From a virus, in IMG/VR virus record IMGVR_UViG_3300044712_001401, positions 25,066 through 89,065 of that record: 64,000 nt of DNA. One strand, 5' to 3'. The position numbers were made by a program, and so were the translations under genes. This document shows positions 1,848-13,035 of the stretch, piece by piece. The notes beneath the pieces are model-generated. The model did not search any database and was not told where the DNA came from. It saw only the letters and a list, made by a program, of their open reading frames with translations. Positions within the stretch are counted from its first letter, which is position 1. Each line of letters begins with the position of its first letter.

Positions 1848-2899
1848 ACACCGAGAAGTCTTGGTCGGTATTGATTGGCGATGTCCGGGTTCGTCTGCGC
1901 GACGTCCCGGACGAGTCGGTGCATTGTGTGGTGACATCGCCACCGTATTTCTCTCAGCGTGACTACGGGATGCCGGAGCAAATCGGGCTAGAGAAGACGT
2001 CGGCGGAATATGTCGCGCAACTCGTCGCGGTGTTCCGCGAAGTTAAGCGCGTCTTGCGTCACGACGGAACGCTCTGGCTGAATCTCGGCGACAAATACGC
2101 GAGCCAAGGTGGGGCTCGCAGCTATGGCTCGTCGGACGGCGCGGTGCGTCGGGCAGACGCTCCGGAGCGGAGAGCCCCGACGCTGCCACGCAAGAACTTG
2201 TACGGTATCCCGTGGCGTGTCGCGTTTGCCTTGCAAGACGACGGGTGGCTGCTGCGGCAGGATATTATTTGGCACAAATCGGATGCCATGCCGGAGAGCG
2301 TGACGGATCGGTGCTCGTCGGCGCATGAGTACGTTTTTCTTCTGGCTCGCGGATTCGATTACTTTTTCGATGCGGACGCCATCGCGGAGCCTGCCAGCGG
2401 AACGAGCGGCGGAGCGTGTTTCGGCAAGCAACAACACGATGCGGCCGGCTCCGGAGCGCAATCTCGCAGGTACGACCGGCCGGAGTACGAGACTCGCAAC
2501 AAGCGAAGCGTTTGGACCATGCCGACGTCCAAGTTTGGCGGAGCGCATTTCGCGACGTTTCCGCCGGCTCTCGTCGAGCCGTGCGTTCGTGCGGGCACGA
2601 GCGAGCGCGGGTGCTGCGCCGGATGCGGCGAGCCAATCCGTAGCGGAGGCGTCAAACGCTGGTGCACTTGCGGGAGCGAGGACGTTGCGCCGAGCGTGGT
2701 ACTCGATCCGTTTGGTGGCTCGGGGACCGTCGCGGCAGTCTGCGACCTGCTCGGCGGGCGACGGACAATCCTTTGCGAGCTAAACCCGGAATACGCGGCG
2801 ATGATTCCGGAGCGAGTGCGAGACGTTCGAGATGCGGCGTTCGGGCGGACGAAGCAGCGTGCGGTTCCGCCGATGCCGGGTCAAAAAGATCTTTTCTAG
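1844..2899 (+). CDS. Site-specific DNA methyltransferase (N4-C/N6-A, beta class)
   Basis: TSPPY catalytic motif; HFATFP; C-terminal VLDPFGGSGT SAM-binding motif. Confidence 0.92.
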   Translation: MNTEKSWSVLIGDVRVRLRDVPDESVHCVVTSPPYFSQRDYGMPEQIGLEKTSAEYVAQLVAVFREVKRVLRHDGTLWLNLGDKYASQGGARSYGSSDGAVRRADAPERRAPTLPRKNLYGIPWRVAFALQDDGWLLRQDIIWHKSDAMPESVTDRCSSAHEYVFLLARGFDYFFDADAIAEPASGTSGGACFGKQQHDAAGSGAQSRRYDRPEYETRNKRSVWTMPTSKFGGAHFATFPPALVEPCVRAGTSERGCCAGCGEPIRSGGVKRWCTCGSEDVAPSVVLDPFGGSGTVAAVCDLLGGRRTILCELNPEYAAMIPERVRDVRDAAFGRTKQRAVPPMPGQKDLF

Positions 2900-2910
2900 G
2901 AGACGAGACG

Positions 2911-3498
2911 ATGCCGGTGATTGTTGGGGTATCGAAAGATGGGGTTATTGAGTTCGCGACTGCGAGACTAACCGAGGAATCGGTGGAGCCACTAAACCAA
3001 ATCGTCGACGAAGGCGGATATGTCGCGATGGTCGATGGAAGGGTCACAGTGGGCGGGCGAGACGTCGAAAACGGTATTGTGCGGCCGGAGACGGCTAAGG
3101 CCGTTACGACGGTTTTCGATGTCGCGTTGTCGCTGCTGCTCCGCGTTGAGCAAGCCGGAATGATTGGCGACAAGTGGATGCGAGACATCGTCGCGAGACA
3201 GTCGCGGGCGGCTTGCGACGCGTGGGAGGAAGTCTACCCGAATGAGGCGTGTATATCGCGGCGAGCCTGGGATCGAATCGCGGACGAGATCGCTACGCGG
3301 CATGAACGGCTGATGGCAGGCGTACTTTCGCGGCTCAACGCCATGCAGATTTCTCCGGCTCCGCAACTCGTCGAGTCAGCACGGCCGGGAGTGTTTTTGA
3401 GTGTCACGCGAGAAACCGCAACCGGCTTTCGCATCGGAATTGCCGGGGCGTTGATGACGGCTCGCGAAGTGGCGCAAGTCATGTCGCAGGCGGACTGA
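2911..3498 (+). CDS. Hypothetical protein
   Basis: AGGAG RBS then ATG 2911. Confidence 0.6.
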   Translation: MPVIVGVSKDGVIEFATARLTEESVEPLNQIVDEGGYVAMVDGRVTVGGRDVENGIVRPETAKAVTTVFDVALSLLLRVEQAGMIGDKWMRDIVARQSRAACDAWEEVYPNEACISRRAWDRIADEIATRHERLMAGVLSRLNAMQISPAPQLVESARPGVFLSVTRETATGFRIGIAGALMTAREVAQVMSQAD

Positions 3499-3558: not shown

Positions 3559-4962
3559 ATGGAAGACACGGTGAAAATCACGGAGTTGGACCTAGGCGAA
3601 ATTTTCCTAGGCGAGTTGCGGAACAAGACCGCGAGAGTCGGAGTCGTCGGACTCGGAACGGTGGGGCTCCCACGGGCGGTGGCTCTGGCTCGCGCCGGAT
3701 GGGACGTCGTCGGAGTCGATCGCAACGACGAGCGACTAGCGAAGATTGCCAACGCGGCGATGTTCGGCGCTCGCCCCATCCCGGAGCCTGGGCTCCCCAA
3801 TCAAATCTGCGGAGTTCCGGCCGATGACATTTTTGCGGCTGGAGAAATGGGCTTTACTGTCTACGCGTGGGACCAGTTACGAAATGAAACGGACGGCGAG
3901 CAAATCGACGTCTGGATCGTTTGCGTCTCGGCTCGCTCTCGCAAGGGAAACGACAAGCGGATGGGACCAGACTACCGACAGGTTCTGGACGCGGTGGCGC
4001 AAATCGGTGCGTTGTCGGGCGGGCGGAGTGCGCCGTTGCTGGTTGTCTTGGAGTCGCTCGTCGGTCCGGGAGCCACCCGAGCCCTGGTCGGCGAGACGCT
4101 CCAACGGATGCGACAGGAGCGTACGGTGCTTGCGGCGTACTCTCCGCCTGACTCGGGGATCGATCCGGAAAGTTTCAAGATGGTGAGTGGGACTAGCACC
4201 CTAGCGAGCCAAGCGGCTCGCGTTGTTTACGAATCGATTTTCACGCGGATATTGATCCCAGCGAAGGCGGAGGTAGTCGAAGCGTCGGCGCTCGTGCGGC
4301 ATTGCCAACGAGTCACAATTCGCGCGCTTGCTAACGAAATGTCCGATGCCCTGGCATTGATGGGAATCTCGTACGCAGACGCGTCTTTGCTCGCTCGTGA
4401 TAGCGTCGGCCCGTTTGGGCATCGACACGTCTTGCCGGATGCCGGAGTCGAACCGACGGACTCCGCCGAGACGGCTCCGAGTGCGTTTGCCGATGTCGCG
4501 GATTCGTTTAGCGCAACTCCGATCATTCGGTACGCCGGCAATACGCAAGAGAGGCGATGGGAAAAGATCGTTGAACGCGTCGAGATACTCGCGGGACACT
4601 CGGGTCGCTCGCCTGGGGATGCCGAGCGCTGGCCGATGATAATCGGGGTGTACGGGCTGCGACCGAAAGAGAGCGACGACGTCGAAGACGGTTCGGTCGG
4701 AAGCAAGATCGCGCAGGGGCTCGCGGCTCGCGGCTATACGGTAAAGCTATTCGACGACGCGGGCGGCTCGCGTCCGACCGTCGATGATATGCGGCGGTGT
4801 TCCGTGCTCGTCTGCGTGCACGGAACGCAGGGGCTGCCGACGGAGATTCTCGCCAACGCGACGACGCAGGAGCCGTGGATTTACGACGTCAGGAACCCCC
4901 CGTCGTGCGACCGGATGCCGCGAGACTTGATCCGGCTCTGGCGAAAGTCGCTTGGCGAGTAA
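3559..4962 (+). CDS. UDP-glucose/GDP-mannose dehydrogenase-family protein (degenerate)
   Basis: VGVVGLGTVGLP Rossmann motif; LVVLESLVGPGAT; AYSP; ALANEM; C-terminal GVYGLRPKESDD. Confidence 0.75.
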   Translation: MEDTVKITELDLGEIFLGELRNKTARVGVVGLGTVGLPRAVALARAGWDVVGVDRNDERLAKIANAAMFGARPIPEPGLPNQICGVPADDIFAAGEMGFTVYAWDQLRNETDGEQIDVWIVCVSARSRKGNDKRMGPDYRQVLDAVAQIGALSGGRSAPLLVVLESLVGPGATRALVGETLQRMRQERTVLAAYSPPDSGIDPESFKMVSGTSTLASQAARVVYESIFTRILIPAKAEVVEASALVRHCQRVTIRALANEMSDALALMGISYADASLLARDSVGPFGHRHVLPDAGVEPTDSAETAPSAFADVADSFSATPIIRYAGNTQERRWEKIVERVEILAGHSGRSPGDAERWPMIIGVYGLRPKESDDVEDGSVGSKIAQGLAARGYTVKLFDDAGGSRPTVDDMRRCSVLVCVHGTQGLPTEILANATTQEPWIYDVRNPPSCDRMPRDLIRLWRKSLGE

Positions 4963-7880: not shown

Positions 7881-10088
7881 ATGTCGGATTTTTTAGCGGA
7901 CGCGCGACGCTCCGCGCGTTCGCGGGTGGAGATGGCTCGGCGGTCGTTTGGGCAGTCGCTGCGCAAGGCAACGAGCGGTGGCGCAGTTGTCGGCGACGCG
8001 TCCGAGCTTGGGCTCATGTCGTCGCTCGGAACGTCTGACGGATTCTCGTTTGGCGACAAAGGAGCGAGTCAAGCTCGACTCGCTCTGGCCGAGTTTCGGT
8101 CGTGGGTCTATGTCTGCGTAAACGCGATCGCGGGGCGTCTGTCGTCGCAACCGATGGTCGCCTGCCTTGTGTCGGACGACCAAAAGTCAAAGACGGGCAA
8201 GCGTAACTCGCGGCTTGACGTCACGCGGAAAAGAAAAGTTCCGGAATCGATTCGCGCGAAACTCCCAACCGCTTTCAGCATGGAGATTCTCACGAGCGGC
8301 GATATCGTCCGGACGTTAGAGCAACCCAACCCGGTGCAATCGCGCTCGCAGTTCTTGTACTTTTCGGCGGCGTCGCTGCTTTTGTGCGGAGAGTGTTATT
8401 GGGTCGCTGGGCTCGCAACTCCAGACGAAAGCGACCAGACGAGCGACGATGGGCCGCGCGTGGAATATTGGGCGATTCCGCGAACGTGGATCAAGCCATT
8501 GCATGAGGGGCGGTTATTTTCGGGCTACGAGTTGCGGACGAGCCCCAACGCCGAACCGATTTTGTTATCGTCTTCGCAGGTCGCTCGGACGTACTTTCCT
8601 GATCCGTCGGACATCCGCGCGTGTCGTTCTCCGCTCCAAGCCGTCGCAACGTCGGTGCGTGTTGACGACCGGCTCCAAGCGAGCCAAGAGCAAGCGTTCG
8701 ACCGTGGGCTCGATCCGAACCTAATCGTCACGGTGGGGCGGCTACGCGACGAGGACGGCAAGTTAGGTGATCGTCGTCCTCGTCTGACGGGGAGCCAGCG
8801 GCGACAATTGATTCGGGCCGTGCAGGAGGTCTGGGACTCGACGGTCAACGAGGGCTACCCTGCCATCGTCGACGGTTTCATTGAGTCGGTACACAAGCTA
8901 TCCAACACGCCATCCGAAATGGATTGGACCGAGTCGGGCGACGTAATCAAGCGGCGTATCTTTCAAGCGTTTCGCGTGAACCCCATCATCGTCGGGGAGA
9001 TTGTCGGAGCGAATCGCGCCCAAGTCGTCGAGGCGGAGAAGCATTTTTGCGCGAACGCTGTCAACCCCATCGCGTCGGCTCTCTCGGACTCTGCGGATCG
9101 GCTCTCGCGTTCGTTTTTCGAGGGCGGCTCGTCGACGCGTCTAACCGTATACGTCGAGCAGGCCGAGCCCACGGACCCGGATCTCGATACGCGGCGATGG
9201 GGCGACGCGCGTAAGCTGGGCGACGTAACGCGAGACGAGTATAGAGCCGAGCTATTGGGACTGCCACCACTTGAGGACGACAACGCCACGCGCAACACCC
9301 TACTATCGACCGTCGGCGGAATTACGGGCACGGTCCAGGTTGTCACGGCGGTCGGGCAAGGCATGGTGCGCCCCGAACAAGCCCAAGCGATGTTGGAGCT
9401 ATTTCTCGAAATTCCTCCGGACGTCGCGGGCCGAATTGCCGGCGTTGGGCAGGCTCCGATCCCGGCTCTGACGCCACCGAATCCGCCGGGCGGACCAGTG
9501 CCATCGCCAGCACCGCCAAAGCCGGCCGATCCGGTGGACGACAACGAGGAGCCACCGCTTGCCGAGGACGCTCCGCCGCAGCCGGACGAGTCGCAGGAGG
9601 CGTCGTATGTGGCTCGCTATGACGTCGTACCGCTCGCGCCGACCCAATCCATGCAAGACGAAGCGGCCGTCGGTCTGGGCTTGCTAGGCGAACGCACGGT
9701 GCAAGTTTCGTCGGGGCTGCTGTCGGTGGCTCGTCGTATTGCCGGCGGAGAGCGATTGCGGGCGATCGAGTGGCGATGGCTTCGCAGCTATCTCGCACGG
9801 TGCGGAAACGCTGGGCGCAACGAGCCGGGATGGAATCGCGACGAGGCATCTTGGCCGTCGTTGCCGGCGTTGCTCTGGACGTGTTGCGGCGGTGACGCGG
9901 CGTTCGTGCGGTCCTCGTACGTGTGCGCGTGTCTCGATACGGCCGACCGTCGCGAGGCAAAGCGGGAAAAGTTTGCCGGGGCGACGACGACGATTACGCG
10001 AGCCGACGTCAAGGCGCTCAATGCCTCGCAGCTCAACGCGTTGATTGGAGGGGCTGCCGACCAAATCGGTGGCACGTTTCAAGGCTAG
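7881..10088 (+). CDS. Phage portal protein with Pro-rich linker and C-terminal extension
   Basis: WVYVCVNAIA, LEQPNP, LLLCGECYW, SPLQA, IFQAFRVNPIIVG and TRDEYRAELLGLPPL are typical of HK97-like portals. Confidence 0.88.
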   Translation: MSDFLADARRSARSRVEMARRSFGQSLRKATSGGAVVGDASELGLMSSLGTSDGFSFGDKGASQARLALAEFRSWVYVCVNAIAGRLSSQPMVACLVSDDQKSKTGKRNSRLDVTRKRKVPESIRAKLPTAFSMEILTSGDIVRTLEQPNPVQSRSQFLYFSAASLLLCGECYWVAGLATPDESDQTSDDGPRVEYWAIPRTWIKPLHEGRLFSGYELRTSPNAEPILLSSSQVARTYFPDPSDIRACRSPLQAVATSVRVDDRLQASQEQAFDRGLDPNLIVTVGRLRDEDGKLGDRRPRLTGSQRRQLIRAVQEVWDSTVNEGYPAIVDGFIESVHKLSNTPSEMDWTESGDVIKRRIFQAFRVNPIIVGEIVGANRAQVVEAEKHFCANAVNPIASALSDSADRLSRSFFEGGSSTRLTVYVEQAEPTDPDLDTRRWGDARKLGDVTRDEYRAELLGLPPLEDDNATRNTLLSTVGGITGTVQVVTAVGQGMVRPEQAQAMLELFLEIPPDVAGRIAGVGQAPIPALTPPNPPGGPVPSPAPPKPADPVDDNEEPPLAEDAPPQPDESQEASYVARYDVVPLAPTQSMQDEAAVGLGLLGERTVQVSSGLLSVARRIAGGERLRAIEWRWLRSYLARCGNAGRNEPGWNRDEASWPSLPALLWTCCGGDAAFVRSSYVCACLDTADRREAKREKFAGATTTITRADVKALNASQLNALIGGAADQIGGTFQG

Positions 10089-13035
10089 CGTCGAGCAGTT
10101 TGTCGCGAGATTCATTGCGGCGAACCCGACATTGACGAAGGGGAGCGGAGCAACTCAAGCGTCTCGGCTCGTAAAGATGTTCGACGCGAAATCGGCTCTG
10201 GCCGATCTGTCGCGGCGGTGCATTAATCCGCTCGCGTCAGCGTTCGCGACTGGGGCAATCGTCGAGCGTCGGCTACACCGCGCCGTTTGCGTTGATCACA
10301 AATCCGGCGTCAAGACGACGGCCGAGGATATCGCGAGACGGCTACAAATCGACTTGCCACCGGGGATTTCGATTGGGCAAATGCCGGCGTGGCTCCGCGC
10401 TCGCGCGGCCGAGATTATCCACCGGACGTTCCAGGAGCCCTATTGGCAGCGCATACCCGAGACGACTCGCGACGATATCGAAGTGACGCTCCGCAACTCG
10501 ATCGACGAGGGGCTCTCCGTCCGGGAAGTCTCGCGTCAAATCATGGAGCGACACGGGGACCAATACGACCGATGGCGATCCGTCAACGTCGCTCGCACCG
10601 AGATGACGAACGCGCTCAACGCCGGGCACGTCGAGGGGATTCGCCAGACGGCGCAAGAAACCGGCCTGCGAATTGGCAAGGAGTGGGTGAGCGTGCTCGG
10701 CACCACGACTCGCGAGACGCACGCGGACGCGGACGGGCAGCAGACACCGGACGCGGAGGGAAATTTTACATTGGCCGGCTACGAAGTTCCGTGGCCGGGG
10801 CACTGGTCGCTGCCAGCGTCCGAGCGTTGCCATTGTTTCCCGGCGGGTACTCTGGTGCGTTCTATCGGCTCAACGCAAGCCGTGATGCGGGCATGGTATG
10901 AAGGCGTTGTCTATGAAATTACGACGGTTGGCGGGCGGAGACTTTCCGTCACCGAGAACCACCCCGTACTTACCGCGAGTGGATGGGTCGCGGCTGGAAA
11001 GCTCAAGATAGGCGACCAGTTGTTCGCCACAACGAGACAAGTCGAGTCGTCCGTGGCGAATGAACAAATACAAGACGAACCAACCAGAATTGAGCAAATG
11101 TTCGAGGCGGCGCGAGAGCGATCCGTTTTTGGTTCCGGGGCGTCCGGCTACAAACTCCGCCGGTGCAGTCGTCGAGACTTCTACGGCGATGGGGAATTCT
11201 CGCAGGGCTATGTCGAGATTGTATTGATCGACAGCGACCTGCGTGCGGATCGTGAATCCGCAGCCGACAAGGTACGACGAGACCAAGACTTCTCGCGAGT
11301 AAACATTTACCTGCCGGAGTTGCTTCGTCATGGCGCGGCGGCGTCTTCGTTCAATCGGCTCAGTGGACAAGCGGCGAGCGTTCCAAGCGGCAGAAAGGAC
11401 GTCGTTAGCCAAAGCGGATCGGTCGTCGTCGTCGAGCCCCGACCAGCGGCTACGTTGCCCATCGGAGTACGAGCGGATTTTGCGGCCGTTGGCTCGCAAT
11501 CTTTCGGCGAGCCACGGACGACTCACCCCGTACCGTTCGGCGACGCGCTTAAGGTTCTCGCCTGCGTCGTAGTCGCGGATCATGTCGCTCAAATCGTCGC
11601 GGTCAAGTCGGCGTGTCACGTGTACGATCTCCAAACTGAAAGCGGCCTGATTGAGGCGGGCACTGGCAATGGTGGTGTAATCGTATCAAATTGTCAATGT
11701 AGCGTTATATCGTCCGTCGTCATGGACGAAATCTCCGACGAGCCAAAGCCGGAACCGACACCGGAACCGGAGCCGACGCCACCGCCGGCAGTCGAGCCAC
11801 CGCCGGCGCAAGAACCGCAGCCAATCCCGGCGTGGGAGCCTGGGACGATTCCGACGTCGGACCAACTCGGTGCGATGAGCTACGAGGAACTGCGGCGAGT
11901 GCCTGTCGAACACGTCGTTAACTTGCATCCCGAATTGAACGACGTACATCAGCGGGTATTGAAAGCGGCGGACAAGTTCGACCGGCTTGGCGGCGCACCG
12001 CCGAAGGCGAAGCTCGACAAAGCGGCCGAGGATTACAACAAGGCACACAAGAAGGTTTACGAGCTTGAAGCGAAATGGATGCAAGCCAACGAGCGAGGCG
12101 ACAAGGAAAAGGCGAAGGCGTTGATGGAAAAAATCGACGCGGCTGCGGCGAAGTTTGAGGCGGCGAAGACCAAGTACGCGGGGATGCTCGACAAGCGATT
12201 TAAGGCGAACGAGTTCAAGACACCGGAAGAGGCTCGGCGGTCTTTCCTGGCATCCGTGGGCGTTCCGAAAGGCGAGCGATTGAAAATCTACGGAGTTAAG
12301 GCTCCGATGCATCCGCCAGAATACCGCGTCAACTTGGAGGATGGCGGGTCCGTCGTCGTCCAGTTTCAGGATCAAAATATGCTGCGGACCAGCACCGGAG
12401 ATTGGGACCGCAATTCGCACGTTGGCCGACGAATTGAGGAGGCGAAAAACTTTGTCGAACCACTGATTGCGAAGCGTGGTGTCTTTGCGGAAAGCGAGCG
12501 AATTGCCAACGAAGTGGCGAACGTGCGGTTTCATCTTGGGGAGGAAGGCGTTCGCGCGCATGCGAAAGCTAAAGGGCACGACGTCACGAAATCAGATGCT
12601 CCAAACTATCGCGGTGTTTTTATCTCGCCGTCGGACGACGTGGGGACTGTGGTGCATGAGCTAGGCCACGTCATCGAAGGGGCTCGCGGCGACGGCATGA
12701 CCAAACGTGCCGAGGAGTTTCGGCAATATCGCACGGCGAAGACGCCAGACGTCCCGATGCGAAAGTACAGTCCGTTCTATTCCGAGTGGGAAATTGGCAA
12801 CGAAGATCGATTTCATGGGGTCTTCGATAGCGACGCCAAGCCGGGGAAGGTATATGATGAAAAAGACAACGTTGCGAGGCGTGCTGCGTACACCGGCAAA
12901 GGCTATGGAATGTATGGCACGGAGCTAACGTCGATGGGGCTCGAAGCGATGTATCGCGACCCGTATCGGCTCGCGAAAAACGACCCGGAGTTGTTCAAGT
13001 TCGTGATTGGGGTGTTGCGTGGAATCGTCGAGTAG
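10045..13035 (+). CDS. MuF/SPP1 gp7-like head morphogenesis protein with an intein and a C-terminal HExxH domain
   Basis: VARTE, KEWVSV...TRETHA, ERCH/CQC after intein removal; VHELGH near the C-terminus; start uncertain (possible fusion to portal). Confidence 0.85.
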   Translation: MEGLPTKSVARFKASVEQFVARFIAANPTLTKGSGATQASRLVKMFDAKSALADLSRRCINPLASAFATGAIVERRLHRAVCVDHKSGVKTTAEDIARRLQIDLPPGISIGQMPAWLRARAAEIIHRTFQEPYWQRIPETTRDDIEVTLRNSIDEGLSVREVSRQIMERHGDQYDRWRSVNVARTEMTNALNAGHVEGIRQTAQETGLRIGKEWVSVLGTTTRETHADADGQQTPDAEGNFTLAGYEVPWPGHWSLPASERCHCFPAGTLVRSIGSTQAVMRAWYEGVVYEITTVGGRRLSVTENHPVLTASGWVAAGKLKIGDQLFATTRQVESSVANEQIQDEPTRIEQMFEAARERSVFGSGASGYKLRRCSRRDFYGDGEFSQGYVEIVLIDSDLRADRESAADKVRRDQDFSRVNIYLPELLRHGAAASSFNRLSGQAASVPSGRKDVVSQSGSVVVVEPRPAATLPIGVRADFAAVGSQSFGEPRTTHPVPFGDALKVLACVVVADHVAQIVAVKSACHVYDLQTESGLIEAGTGNGGVIVSNCQCSVISSVVMDEISDEPKPEPTPEPEPTPPPAVEPPPAQEPQPIPAWEPGTIPTSDQLGAMSYEELRRVPVEHVVNLHPELNDVHQRVLKAADKFDRLGGAPPKAKLDKAAEDYNKAHKKVYELEAKWMQANERGDKEKAKALMEKIDAAAAKFEAAKTKYAGMLDKRFKANEFKTPEEARRSFLASVGVPKGERLKIYGVKAPMHPPEYRVNLEDGGSVVVQFQDQNMLRTSTGDWDRNSHVGRRIEEAKNFVEPLIAKRGVFAESERIANEVANVRFHLGEEGVRAHAKAKGHDVTKSDAPNYRGVFISPSDDVGTVVHELGHVIEGARGDGMTKRAEEFRQYRTAKTPDVPMRKYSPFYSEWEIGNEDRFHGVFDSDAKPGKVYDEKDNVARRAAYTGKGYGMYGTELTSMGLEAMYRDPYRLAKNDPELFKFVIGVLRGIVE
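10834..11691 (+). mobile_element. Intein (Hint domain), 286 aa
   Basis: Block A CFPAGT; block B VTENHPV; block F HVYDL; ends in SN followed by +1 Cys; removal restores the MuF Cys motif. Confidence 0.9.
10870..11619 (-). CDS. Antisense nested HTH + DUF559/Vsr-like (PD-(D/E)xK) putative homing endonuclease
   Basis: YDAGENLKRVAERYGVSRPWLAERL (HTH); QVAVDQYNLDIAL...IAVEV...LLNSGWFVLYLF; GGAG 9 nt before GTG 11619. Confidence 0.72.
   Translation of the reverse strand: MTRRLDRDDLSDMIRDYDAGENLKRVAERYGVSRPWLAERLRANGRKIRSYSDGQRSRWSGLDDDDRSALANDVLSAAWNARRLSTEPIERRRRRAMTKQLRQVNVYSREVLVSSYLVGCGFTIRTQVAVDQYNLDIALREFPIAVEVSTTAPAEFVAGRPGTKNGSLSRRLEHLLNSGWFVLYLFIRHGRLDLSRCGEQLVAYLELSSRDPSTRGKYGVVLGDGKSPPANRRNFIDNAFIPCPHHGLR

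Follow-up and report, generated by a model that had tools for sequence, protein, structure and literature searches.

A predicted Vsr-like homing endonuclease gene nested antisense within the intein of a phage MuF gene

The stretch of DNA analyzed here (64,000 nt, 58% GC, referred to below as the window) is part of an 89-kb record of an uncultivated virus in IMG/VR (IMGVR_UViG_3300044712_001401), the completeness of which was estimated by CheckV at 85%. It contains an open reading frame (ORF) for a MuF-like head morphogenesis (minor capsid) protein that is interrupted by an intein, and the opposite strand of this intein holds a second ORF, nested wholly within it, whose predicted product combines a helix-turn-helix (HTH) module with a Vsr-like nuclease domain (Table 1). 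We consider it probable that the locus is a mobile MuF intein whose homing endonuclease has a gene of its own on the opposite strand, in codon-on-codon register.

The MuF intein and the nested gene on its opposite strand

The 996-aa ORF is matched by the Pfam family Phage_Mu_F (residues 144-238, 1e-9) and by several PHROG head-morphogenesis families. A sequence-only reading of this DNA had recognized a canonical intein within it, and both the landmarks and the coordinates of this intein hold. The residues of a class-1 intein are complete (C1, T40-E-N-H43, H262-VYDL, N286 and C+1), and the penultimate residue is Ser, not His, as is the case in many members of the family described below. The predicted structure of the sense product has a HINT fold (HINT alignments span ~107-110 residues) composed of two lobes, approximately residues 1-135 and 245-286, with a pLDDT (predicted local distance difference test) score of >90 in the splicing lobes. 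The intact motifs, together with the interruption of the MuF motif N↓CRC (arrows mark the insertion site and the splice junctions), which is uninterrupted in intein-less alleles, suggest that the intein is able to splice.

The central part of the intein had been described as an insert of ~190 aa devoid of a nuclease and expected to have no fold. The first point stands, since searches of the sense intein against sequence-family libraries matched splicing parts only, with no nuclease family among the matches. The extent of the insert has to be revised: no fold was modelled for residues ~140-235, which leaves a filler nearer 100 aa in length, and residues 81-135 were predicted with a pLDDT of 82-96. 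A nuclease encoded by the sense strand of the insert was therefore rejected as a candidate, given both the lack of family matches and the lack of a modelled fold in residues 140-235.

On the minus strand, no stop interrupts the frame between the position facing intein codon 285 and a TGA facing codon 13. Alignment of the family placed the start of the gene at a GTG located opposite the block-F His codon. The 249-aa ORF proposed from the sequence alone is confirmed, as is its ribosome-binding site inside the intein, a Shine-Dalgarno (SD) sequence GGAG read in reverse complement from the block-F Asp-Leu-Gln codons. The gene extends from opposite block F to opposite block A of the intein, and its nuclease core faces part of the N-terminal splicing lobe.

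The antisense protein was modelled by AlphaFold2 with a mean pLDDT of 89.8 (from an alignment of 39 sequences) as an HTH module joined by a helical linker to a nuclease domain resembling those of Vsr and I-Bth0305I, which is the outcome that had been anticipated for this translation. The window copy has one HTH; its relatives appear to have one to several N-terminal copies. The top Foldseek match of the model was 3r3p (I-Bth0305I), with an E-value of 0.011 only, and a profile of 12 family members matched I-Bth0305I (3r3p), 3hrl and Vsr with E-values of 1.3e-6, 2.3e-5 and 0.026, respectively. The original assignment of the product to an HTH plus DUF559/Vsr nuclease is thus upheld for the HTH and the Vsr-like fold, and is not upheld for DUF559 (PF04480), to which the window protein had no match in Pfam. 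When 12 relatives were compared with Pfam, eight gave weak matches to MTES_1575 (best 2.8e-4) and three to DUF559 (best 2.7e-3); matches to HTH_7, HTH_38 and HTH_58 were strong.

Seven residues are invariant in the 39 antisense sequences (Q127, Y133, N134, D136, A145, E147 and R171). The 3r3p construct of I-Bth0305I carries the substitutions D196A and H213A, 17 residues apart (PMC3239194; PDB 3r3p), and the HMMER alignment to 3r3p contains two Ala residues at this spacing, in N-V-A-F and Y-W-A-S. D196 therefore corresponds to D136 (in YNLD) and the Glu of AIEV to E147, which means that the equivalent of the metal-binding Asp is present in the window copy. In most members of the family the H213 position is occupied by a His, as part of the motif E(I/V)FGGxWH.

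Table 1. Features of the intein-containing MuF gene and of the antisense gene nested in it (positions in the window).
Feature	Position	Strand	Details or basis
MuF-like head morphogenesis / minor capsid ORF, intein-interrupted	10045..13035	+	996 aa; start uncertain
Class-1 intein	10834..11691	+	286 aa, MuF residues 264-549, in conserved motif ERCH↓C..SN↓CQC; sequence landmarks
Intein Cys1 (CFPAGT)	10834-10836	+	
Intein block B, TENHP	10951-10965	+	residues 40-44
Sense filler	11251..11538	+	residues ~140-235; open but poorly conserved, low predicted order (pLDDT 31-60)
Intein block F, HVYDL	11617-11631	+	residues 262-266
Intein terminal Asn (VSN)	11689-11691	+	
+1 Cys after the intein	11692-11694	+	
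Antisense nested gene	10870..11619	-	GTG 11619-11617, 249 codons, TGA 10872-10870; exact codon register with the intein
N-terminal HTH module	11491..11601	-	residues 7-43
Vsr / EDxHD-like nuclease domain	10894..11310	-	residues 104-242
YNLD of the nuclease domain	11223-11212	-	
AVEV of the nuclease domain	11187-11176	-	
SD sequence GGAG	11632-11629	-	9 nt before the GTG; read from sequence
Weak candidate promoter	11669..11697	-	TTGACA (11697-11692), 17-nt spacer, CACCAT (11674-11669); read from sequence

Recurrence of the nested gene and selection on the two strands

A tblastn search with the antisense protein retrieved 110 GenBank phage records, 102 of them at a coverage of at least 80%, and in all 110 the match lay on the opposite strand beneath a MuF, head-morphogenesis or minor-capsid gene. 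These phages infect Gordonia, Rhodococcus, Salmonella, Escherichia, Shigella, Pseudomonas, Vibrio, Aggregatibacter and Idiomarinaceae. In IMG/VR, a scan by alignment yielded 389 relatives, and each of the 80 loci that were kept is nested antisense, at the same site, in an open MuF ORF. A profile search of a library of 1.84 billion proteins (clustered at 50% identity) gave 1613 clusters at E <= 1e-30; their full-length matches, which include the C-terminal tail, suggest that these genes are nested in the same manner as that of the window. In the 22 GenBank loci that were fetched, the intein is inserted at one and the same position of MuF (..N↓C ... N↓C[RKQ]).

The family was recovered by profile or alignment queries, and three other searches remained negative: a word-indexed protein search with the antisense protein found no homologue, a single-protein locus search of IMG/VR with the same query gave no match, and a scan of genome contigs with a narrow pattern confirmed no relative. 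Only one of the 22 fetched loci, that of Salmonella phage PK1 (PV360690.1, L003), carries an annotation of the antisense ORF (2459-3268), which overlaps the head morphogenesis gene and is named there a 'hypothetical protein'. The record of Escherichia phage Snoke annotates the intein and not the antisense gene.

At 2465-3007 of Rhodococcus phage REQ3 (NC_016654.1, L009), the MuF intein begins with Ala instead of Cys, and a preprint describes it as a class 3 intein of 225 aa (bioRxiv 10.1101/2025.01.02.630785). The antisense ORF of REQ3 has 181 aa only, without the HTH region, and may be a decaying or minimal variant. In locus L036, a second, weaker match to the hidden Markov model of the antisense protein (4037-4297, E = 3e-10) lies elsewhere within the MuF ORF, also antisense to it, and may represent an HTH only.

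The signals for expression of the nested gene lie within conserved parts of the intein. Wherever a start codon was placed, it faces the block-F His, and an SD core occurs 5-16 nt before it in 45 of 52 non-redundant loci, typically as GGAG(G/A)TC(A/G)TA(A/G)AC-ATG, a sequence obtained by reverse-complementing the block-F (D/N)-L codons. A perfect TATAAT is located within 100 nt upstream of the start in 24 of the 52 loci (chance ~2%, by a rough hand estimate). In six IMG/VR loci (L048, L050, L079, L090, L091 and L100), a full sigma-70 consensus (TTGACA, 17/18 nt, TATAAT) was observed on the antisense strand within the block-G codons (..LY..GIIVKN), about 30-60 nt before the antisense ATG. The candidate promoter of the window, whose TTGACA sits opposite the first two codons of the C-extein, scored under the threshold of the consensus promoter scan. 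The only site proposed by the scan, at 11606-11579, was rejected because it lies inside the antisense ORF and is unable to drive the full-length gene.

By the genetic code, TAA, TAG and TGA read in reverse complement as TTA, CTA and TCA, i.e. two Leu codons and one Ser codon, so that both frames can be kept open by synonymous choice, without any cost in amino acids. Between block F and its terminal stop, which faces intein codon 2-20, the in-register antisense frame is free of stops in 23 of 23 loci, with 5-37 stops in the other frames. In relatives with a GC content of 42-52%, the probability of finding this frame open, given the codon usage of the exteins, is between 3e-3 and 2e-9 per locus, and for the loci with 42-46% GC (Aaphi23 and two Vibrio phages) it is between 5e-6 and 1.8e-9. 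The significance of the antisense frame therefore derives from its being kept open in relatives and from homology (tblastn E = 1e-21 and the profile match to I-Bth0305I), and not from the length of the ORF in the window.

Sense position 1 pairs with antisense position 3 in this register, and second positions are common to both strands. The mean pairwise differences at sense positions 1/2/3, calculated for 11 Jersey-like phages, gave an ordinary coding pattern for the exteins (.20/.14/.48 for the N-extein and.09/.04/.43 for the C-extein) and a flipped pattern for intein codons 76-235 (.24/.045/.10). The numbers of variable sites (96/20/46 in intein codons 76-235 vs 112/78/231 in the exteins) differ with a chi-square P of ~3e-12. 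Intein codons 1-75 are mixed (.15/.07/.19) and the last 37 codons sense-like (.04/.01/.13). The flip was repeated in the Gordonia pair Fosterous/Angelicage (48/7/25 in the insert vs 2/0/17 in the extein). The strand-wise comparison that had been suggested as a check thus reveals, inside the intein, a shift of substitutions to antisense third positions.

Amino-acid divergence follows the same trend. In bins of 20 codons, it amounts in the Jersey-like phages to.36-.40 for the sense product and.05-.22 for the antisense product at codons ~141-220. When the window was compared with 38 IMG/VR relatives, identity in the insert was 32% for the antisense strand (BLOSUM62 score of 1.25 per column) and 20% for the sense strand (0.29), and the N-terminal splicing lobe was more conserved in sense than in antisense. 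These substitution patterns indicate that the antisense gene is under purifying selection.

Jersey-like codons 101-140 show little variation at all three positions (.105/.033/.016 and.15/.04/.055), which suggests that they are under double constraint. This raises the possibility, to which we attach tentative weight, that both strands encode folded domains over most of the overlap and that sense residues ~81-135, with their DFHGDG..V.IV motif and a pLDDT of 82-96, form a real extra subdomain of the intein. The nuclease, however, has its most conserved part (YNxD..AVEV) in the same codons, so that both the sense conservation and the confidence of the AlphaFold2 model could be induced by the constraint on the antisense strand; moreover, HINT alignments cover ~107-110 residues only, and the N lobe (1-70) and the C lobe (245-286) suffice for them. 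A second folded domain in the sense strand would be compatible with an antisense homing endonuclease gene and would refine that interpretation.

Mobility of the intein and the proposed route of homing

The intein-bearing MuF of LSPA1, used as a query, matched 703 phage records, and only in 75 of them did the match reach a coverage of at least 80%. Many close relatives (extein identity of 79-92%; for example SE2, wksl3, K1ind2 and LM08P2) aligned only as two separate stretches of extein over a span of 1041 nt, the outcome expected of intein-less alleles. The inteins of Salmonella phages vB_STM-ZS and W5_chr3 (L018/L019) differ at 4 of 816 nt and are 99.5% identical, while the flanking 200 codons of the N-extein differ at 72 of 600 sites (88% identity of the exteins), a pattern suggesting that the intein moved recently from one MuF allele to another, diverged one. 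In distant intein-less relatives of the window MuF, the empty site has the sequence RCH↓CLC or N↓CRC; a close intein-less relative of the window MuF was not found, the best being 41% identical. The interleaving of intein-bearing and intein-less alleles and the occurrence of near-identical inteins in diverged exteins fit homing and are not proof of it.

We propose that the intein would be translated as part of MuF and excised by its HINT lobes (~1-135 and 245-286), residues ~140-235 acting as a tolerated linker that need only stay free of stops. An antisense mRNA probably starts near the junction of block G and the C-extein, and translation from GTG 11619, opposite the block-F His and served by the SD sequence inside block F, would then produce the 249-aa HTH-nuclease. 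This enzyme would most likely cut intein-less MuF at N↓C(R/Q)C during co-infection, and the intein would be copied in by repair; cutting of this kind is predicted because of the homology with I-Bth0305I and the patchy distribution of the intein. Transcription, cleavage and homing are the steps that we infer. The element envisaged by the sequence-only reading, in which the sense strand splices out a filler and the antisense strand separately expresses the nuclease, survives in the HINT domain with its unstructured stretch and in the separate, selected nuclease gene; it needs amendment in that this gene spans block F to block A and so reaches beyond the filler. The uncoupling of homing from late-gene expression that was proposed along with it may apply, and the promoter candidate of the window copy is weak.

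A broader view, which we favour by a small measure only, is that the locus represents true two-fold dual coding (antisense residues ~105-242, the Vsr-like catalytic core, opposite the N-terminal HINT lobe, sense ~21-158), with the start and SD sequence, and in many members a consensus sigma-70 promoter, placed in blocks F/G, and that splicing and homing would form an obligately co-evolving unit distributed over phages of at least Actinomycetota and several gammaproteobacterial families (~1600 clusters at 50% identity).

Several observations weigh against an antisense homing endonuclease gene: (i) the 271-codon antisense-open run of the window has a P of ~0.1 (6 TTA/CTA/TCA in 710 extein codons), which justifies the caution, expressed at the outset, that an in-register frame may be open by chance; (ii) conservation of the C-terminal tail of the antisense protein, encoded opposite blocks A-B, could mirror the constraint on the sense strand; (iii) Pfam matches of the window protein are weak (HTH_23 at 0.0034 and MTES_1575, PF18741, at 0.2, the latter under its gathering score, with 12 bits vs a cutoff of 38.2); (iv) the window copy lacks the TATAAT present in its nearest relatives, the promoter-bearing segment being missing; and (v) the equivalent of the H213 His is absent, since the sequence of the window copy, AVEVSTTAPAEF, has no His at +7, and the nearest clade of the window (L023-L028, 36-42% identical) is not conserved at this position. 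Because both the His and the TATAAT are missing, the window copy may be weakly expressed or catalytically altered.

The absence of the His makes it less likely that the window copy is a typical EDxHD enzyme, and leaves the assignment of the family unaffected. An earlier suspicion that the active site is degenerate is therefore borne out in part, by the lack of this residue, but D136 and E147 are retained. The catalytic activity of the window copy is uncertain.

These features also bear on a reading in which the antisense protein is real but has lost, or never had, the role of a homing endonuclease and in this lineage may instead regulate by binding DNA, nick DNA or serve as a nuclease in phage competition or exclusion, with an intein that is mostly inherited vertically. 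The clade of the window lacks the H213-type His and nonetheless retains an intact gene with the other invariant residues, the closest intein-less MuF is only 41% identical, and most VSR-like cases look vertically inherited according to the preprint (bioRxiv 10.1101/2025.01.02.630785). Against this, all loci examined have the gene only inside the intein at this one MuF site, the metal-ligand Asp and the Glu are invariant in the family, and elsewhere in the family near-identical inteins reside in diverged exteins and intein-bearing alleles interleave with intein-less ones. We regard this reading as unlikely.

That the antisense ORF is not a gene at all, and is a GC-rich in-register frame open by chance with conservation mirrored from the sense strand, would agree with the P of ~0.1 in the window, the negative word-indexed search and the coupling of the two strands through their common second positions, but is strongly disfavoured by frames open at 42-46% GC (P down to 1.8e-9), by substitutions gathered at antisense third positions, by an insert more conserved in antisense than in sense, by a pLDDT of 89.8 with a Vsr fold vs <50 for the sense stretch, by the profile match to I-Bth0305I and by the conserved start codon and SD sequence.

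Under the preferred interpretation, that of a homing endonuclease gene opposite a splicing intein, the two strands of ~750 bp of DNA can each code for a protein over long spans of evolution. The homing nuclease would be expressed separately from the late head gene hosting the intein, and the locus offers a natural system for the co-evolution of two proteins on the same codons. Standard annotation conceals the second, antisense gene.

The surroundings of the intein were also inspected. The MuF gene may start at TTG 10045 or at a later ATG, and is preceded by a 735-aa ORF (7881..10088), at the position of the portal gene in related phages, which overlaps the start of the MuF ORF by ~44 nt. The C-extein (11692-13035) encodes ~450 aa with a Pro/Glu-rich linker, a Lys/Ala/Glu-rich stretch and a zincin-like HELGH near residue 880, and residues 856-992 match phrog_33618; this C-terminal part may be a MuF-fused effector or protease domain.

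Comparison with known systems

The layout described here is known already, and the window is one more member of its type. Inteins in the minor capsid genes of actinobacteriophages, with an anti-sense VSR-like homing endonuclease, have been reported by Gosselin, Arsenault and Gogarten (bioRxiv 10.1101/2025.01.02.630785, version 2025-10-20). The window fits their type by its contiguous MuF intein, the lack of an in-frame endonuclease and the antisense VSR-like ORF. Their survey covers only actinophages of PhagesDB, whereas the present copy lies on an uncultivated contig and the family reaches into phages of Salmonella, Escherichia, Pseudomonas, Vibrio and Pasteurellaceae. As far as the consulted parts of the preprint extend, the breadth outside actinophages, the codon-position test, the block F/G signals and the antisense gene spanning the splicing domain go beyond it.

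The Discussion of the preprint, where it deals with endonuclease VII-like inteins, names a 'cluster 47' with phages spelled Angelicase, Affeca, Keitabear and Sedona. By tblastn, Angelicage, Affeca, Keitabear and Sedona were found to carry the VSR-like antisense gene in MuF. Either two different inteins are present in these phages, or the wording of the text is ambiguous.

The premise of the sequence-only reading that intein endonucleases are normally in-frame parts of the intein is outdated, since both antisense LAGLIDADG and antisense VSR-like cases are on record in the preprint, which cites the former for inteins such as Synechocystis DnaX (Gorbalenya 1998, Gogarten et al. 2002, as cited in bioRxiv 10.1101/2025.01.02.630785). 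On that account, the window resembles the Synechocystis DnaX intein in that the endonuclease ORF lies opposite the intein coding strand, and differs from it in the nuclease type (Vsr/EDxHD-like vs LAGLIDADG) and in the host gene.

The fractured genes of Dassa et al. 2009 (PMC2677866) contain a free-standing gene for a Vsr-like (EDxHD) or GIY-YIG endonuclease between the halves of a split intein. They share with the window a separately translated Vsr-like endonuclease with N-terminal DNA-binding modules and its own expression signals. In fractured genes, however, the endonuclease is encoded on the same strand and the host gene is split in two, whereas in the window it is antisense and the intein is contiguous (PMC2677866).

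I-Bth0305I is the prototype of the EDxHD family of homing endonucleases (Taylor et al. 2011, PMC3239194). The antisense protein resembles it in having DNA-binding modules before a Vsr-like catalytic domain, and in the correspondence of its N-x-D (D196) with YNLD and of the AIEV Glu with E147. It differs in that I-Bth0305I is encoded by the sense strand of a group I intron, in that His213 is unmatched in the window copy, and in an identity of ~19%. Finally, canonical bifunctional inteins (such as PI-PfuI, 1dq3, and TliVMA, 7qss) carry an in-frame LAGLIDADG/HNH endonuclease; in the window, by contrast, no fold was modelled for the in-frame insert, with the nuclease encoded separately in antisense.

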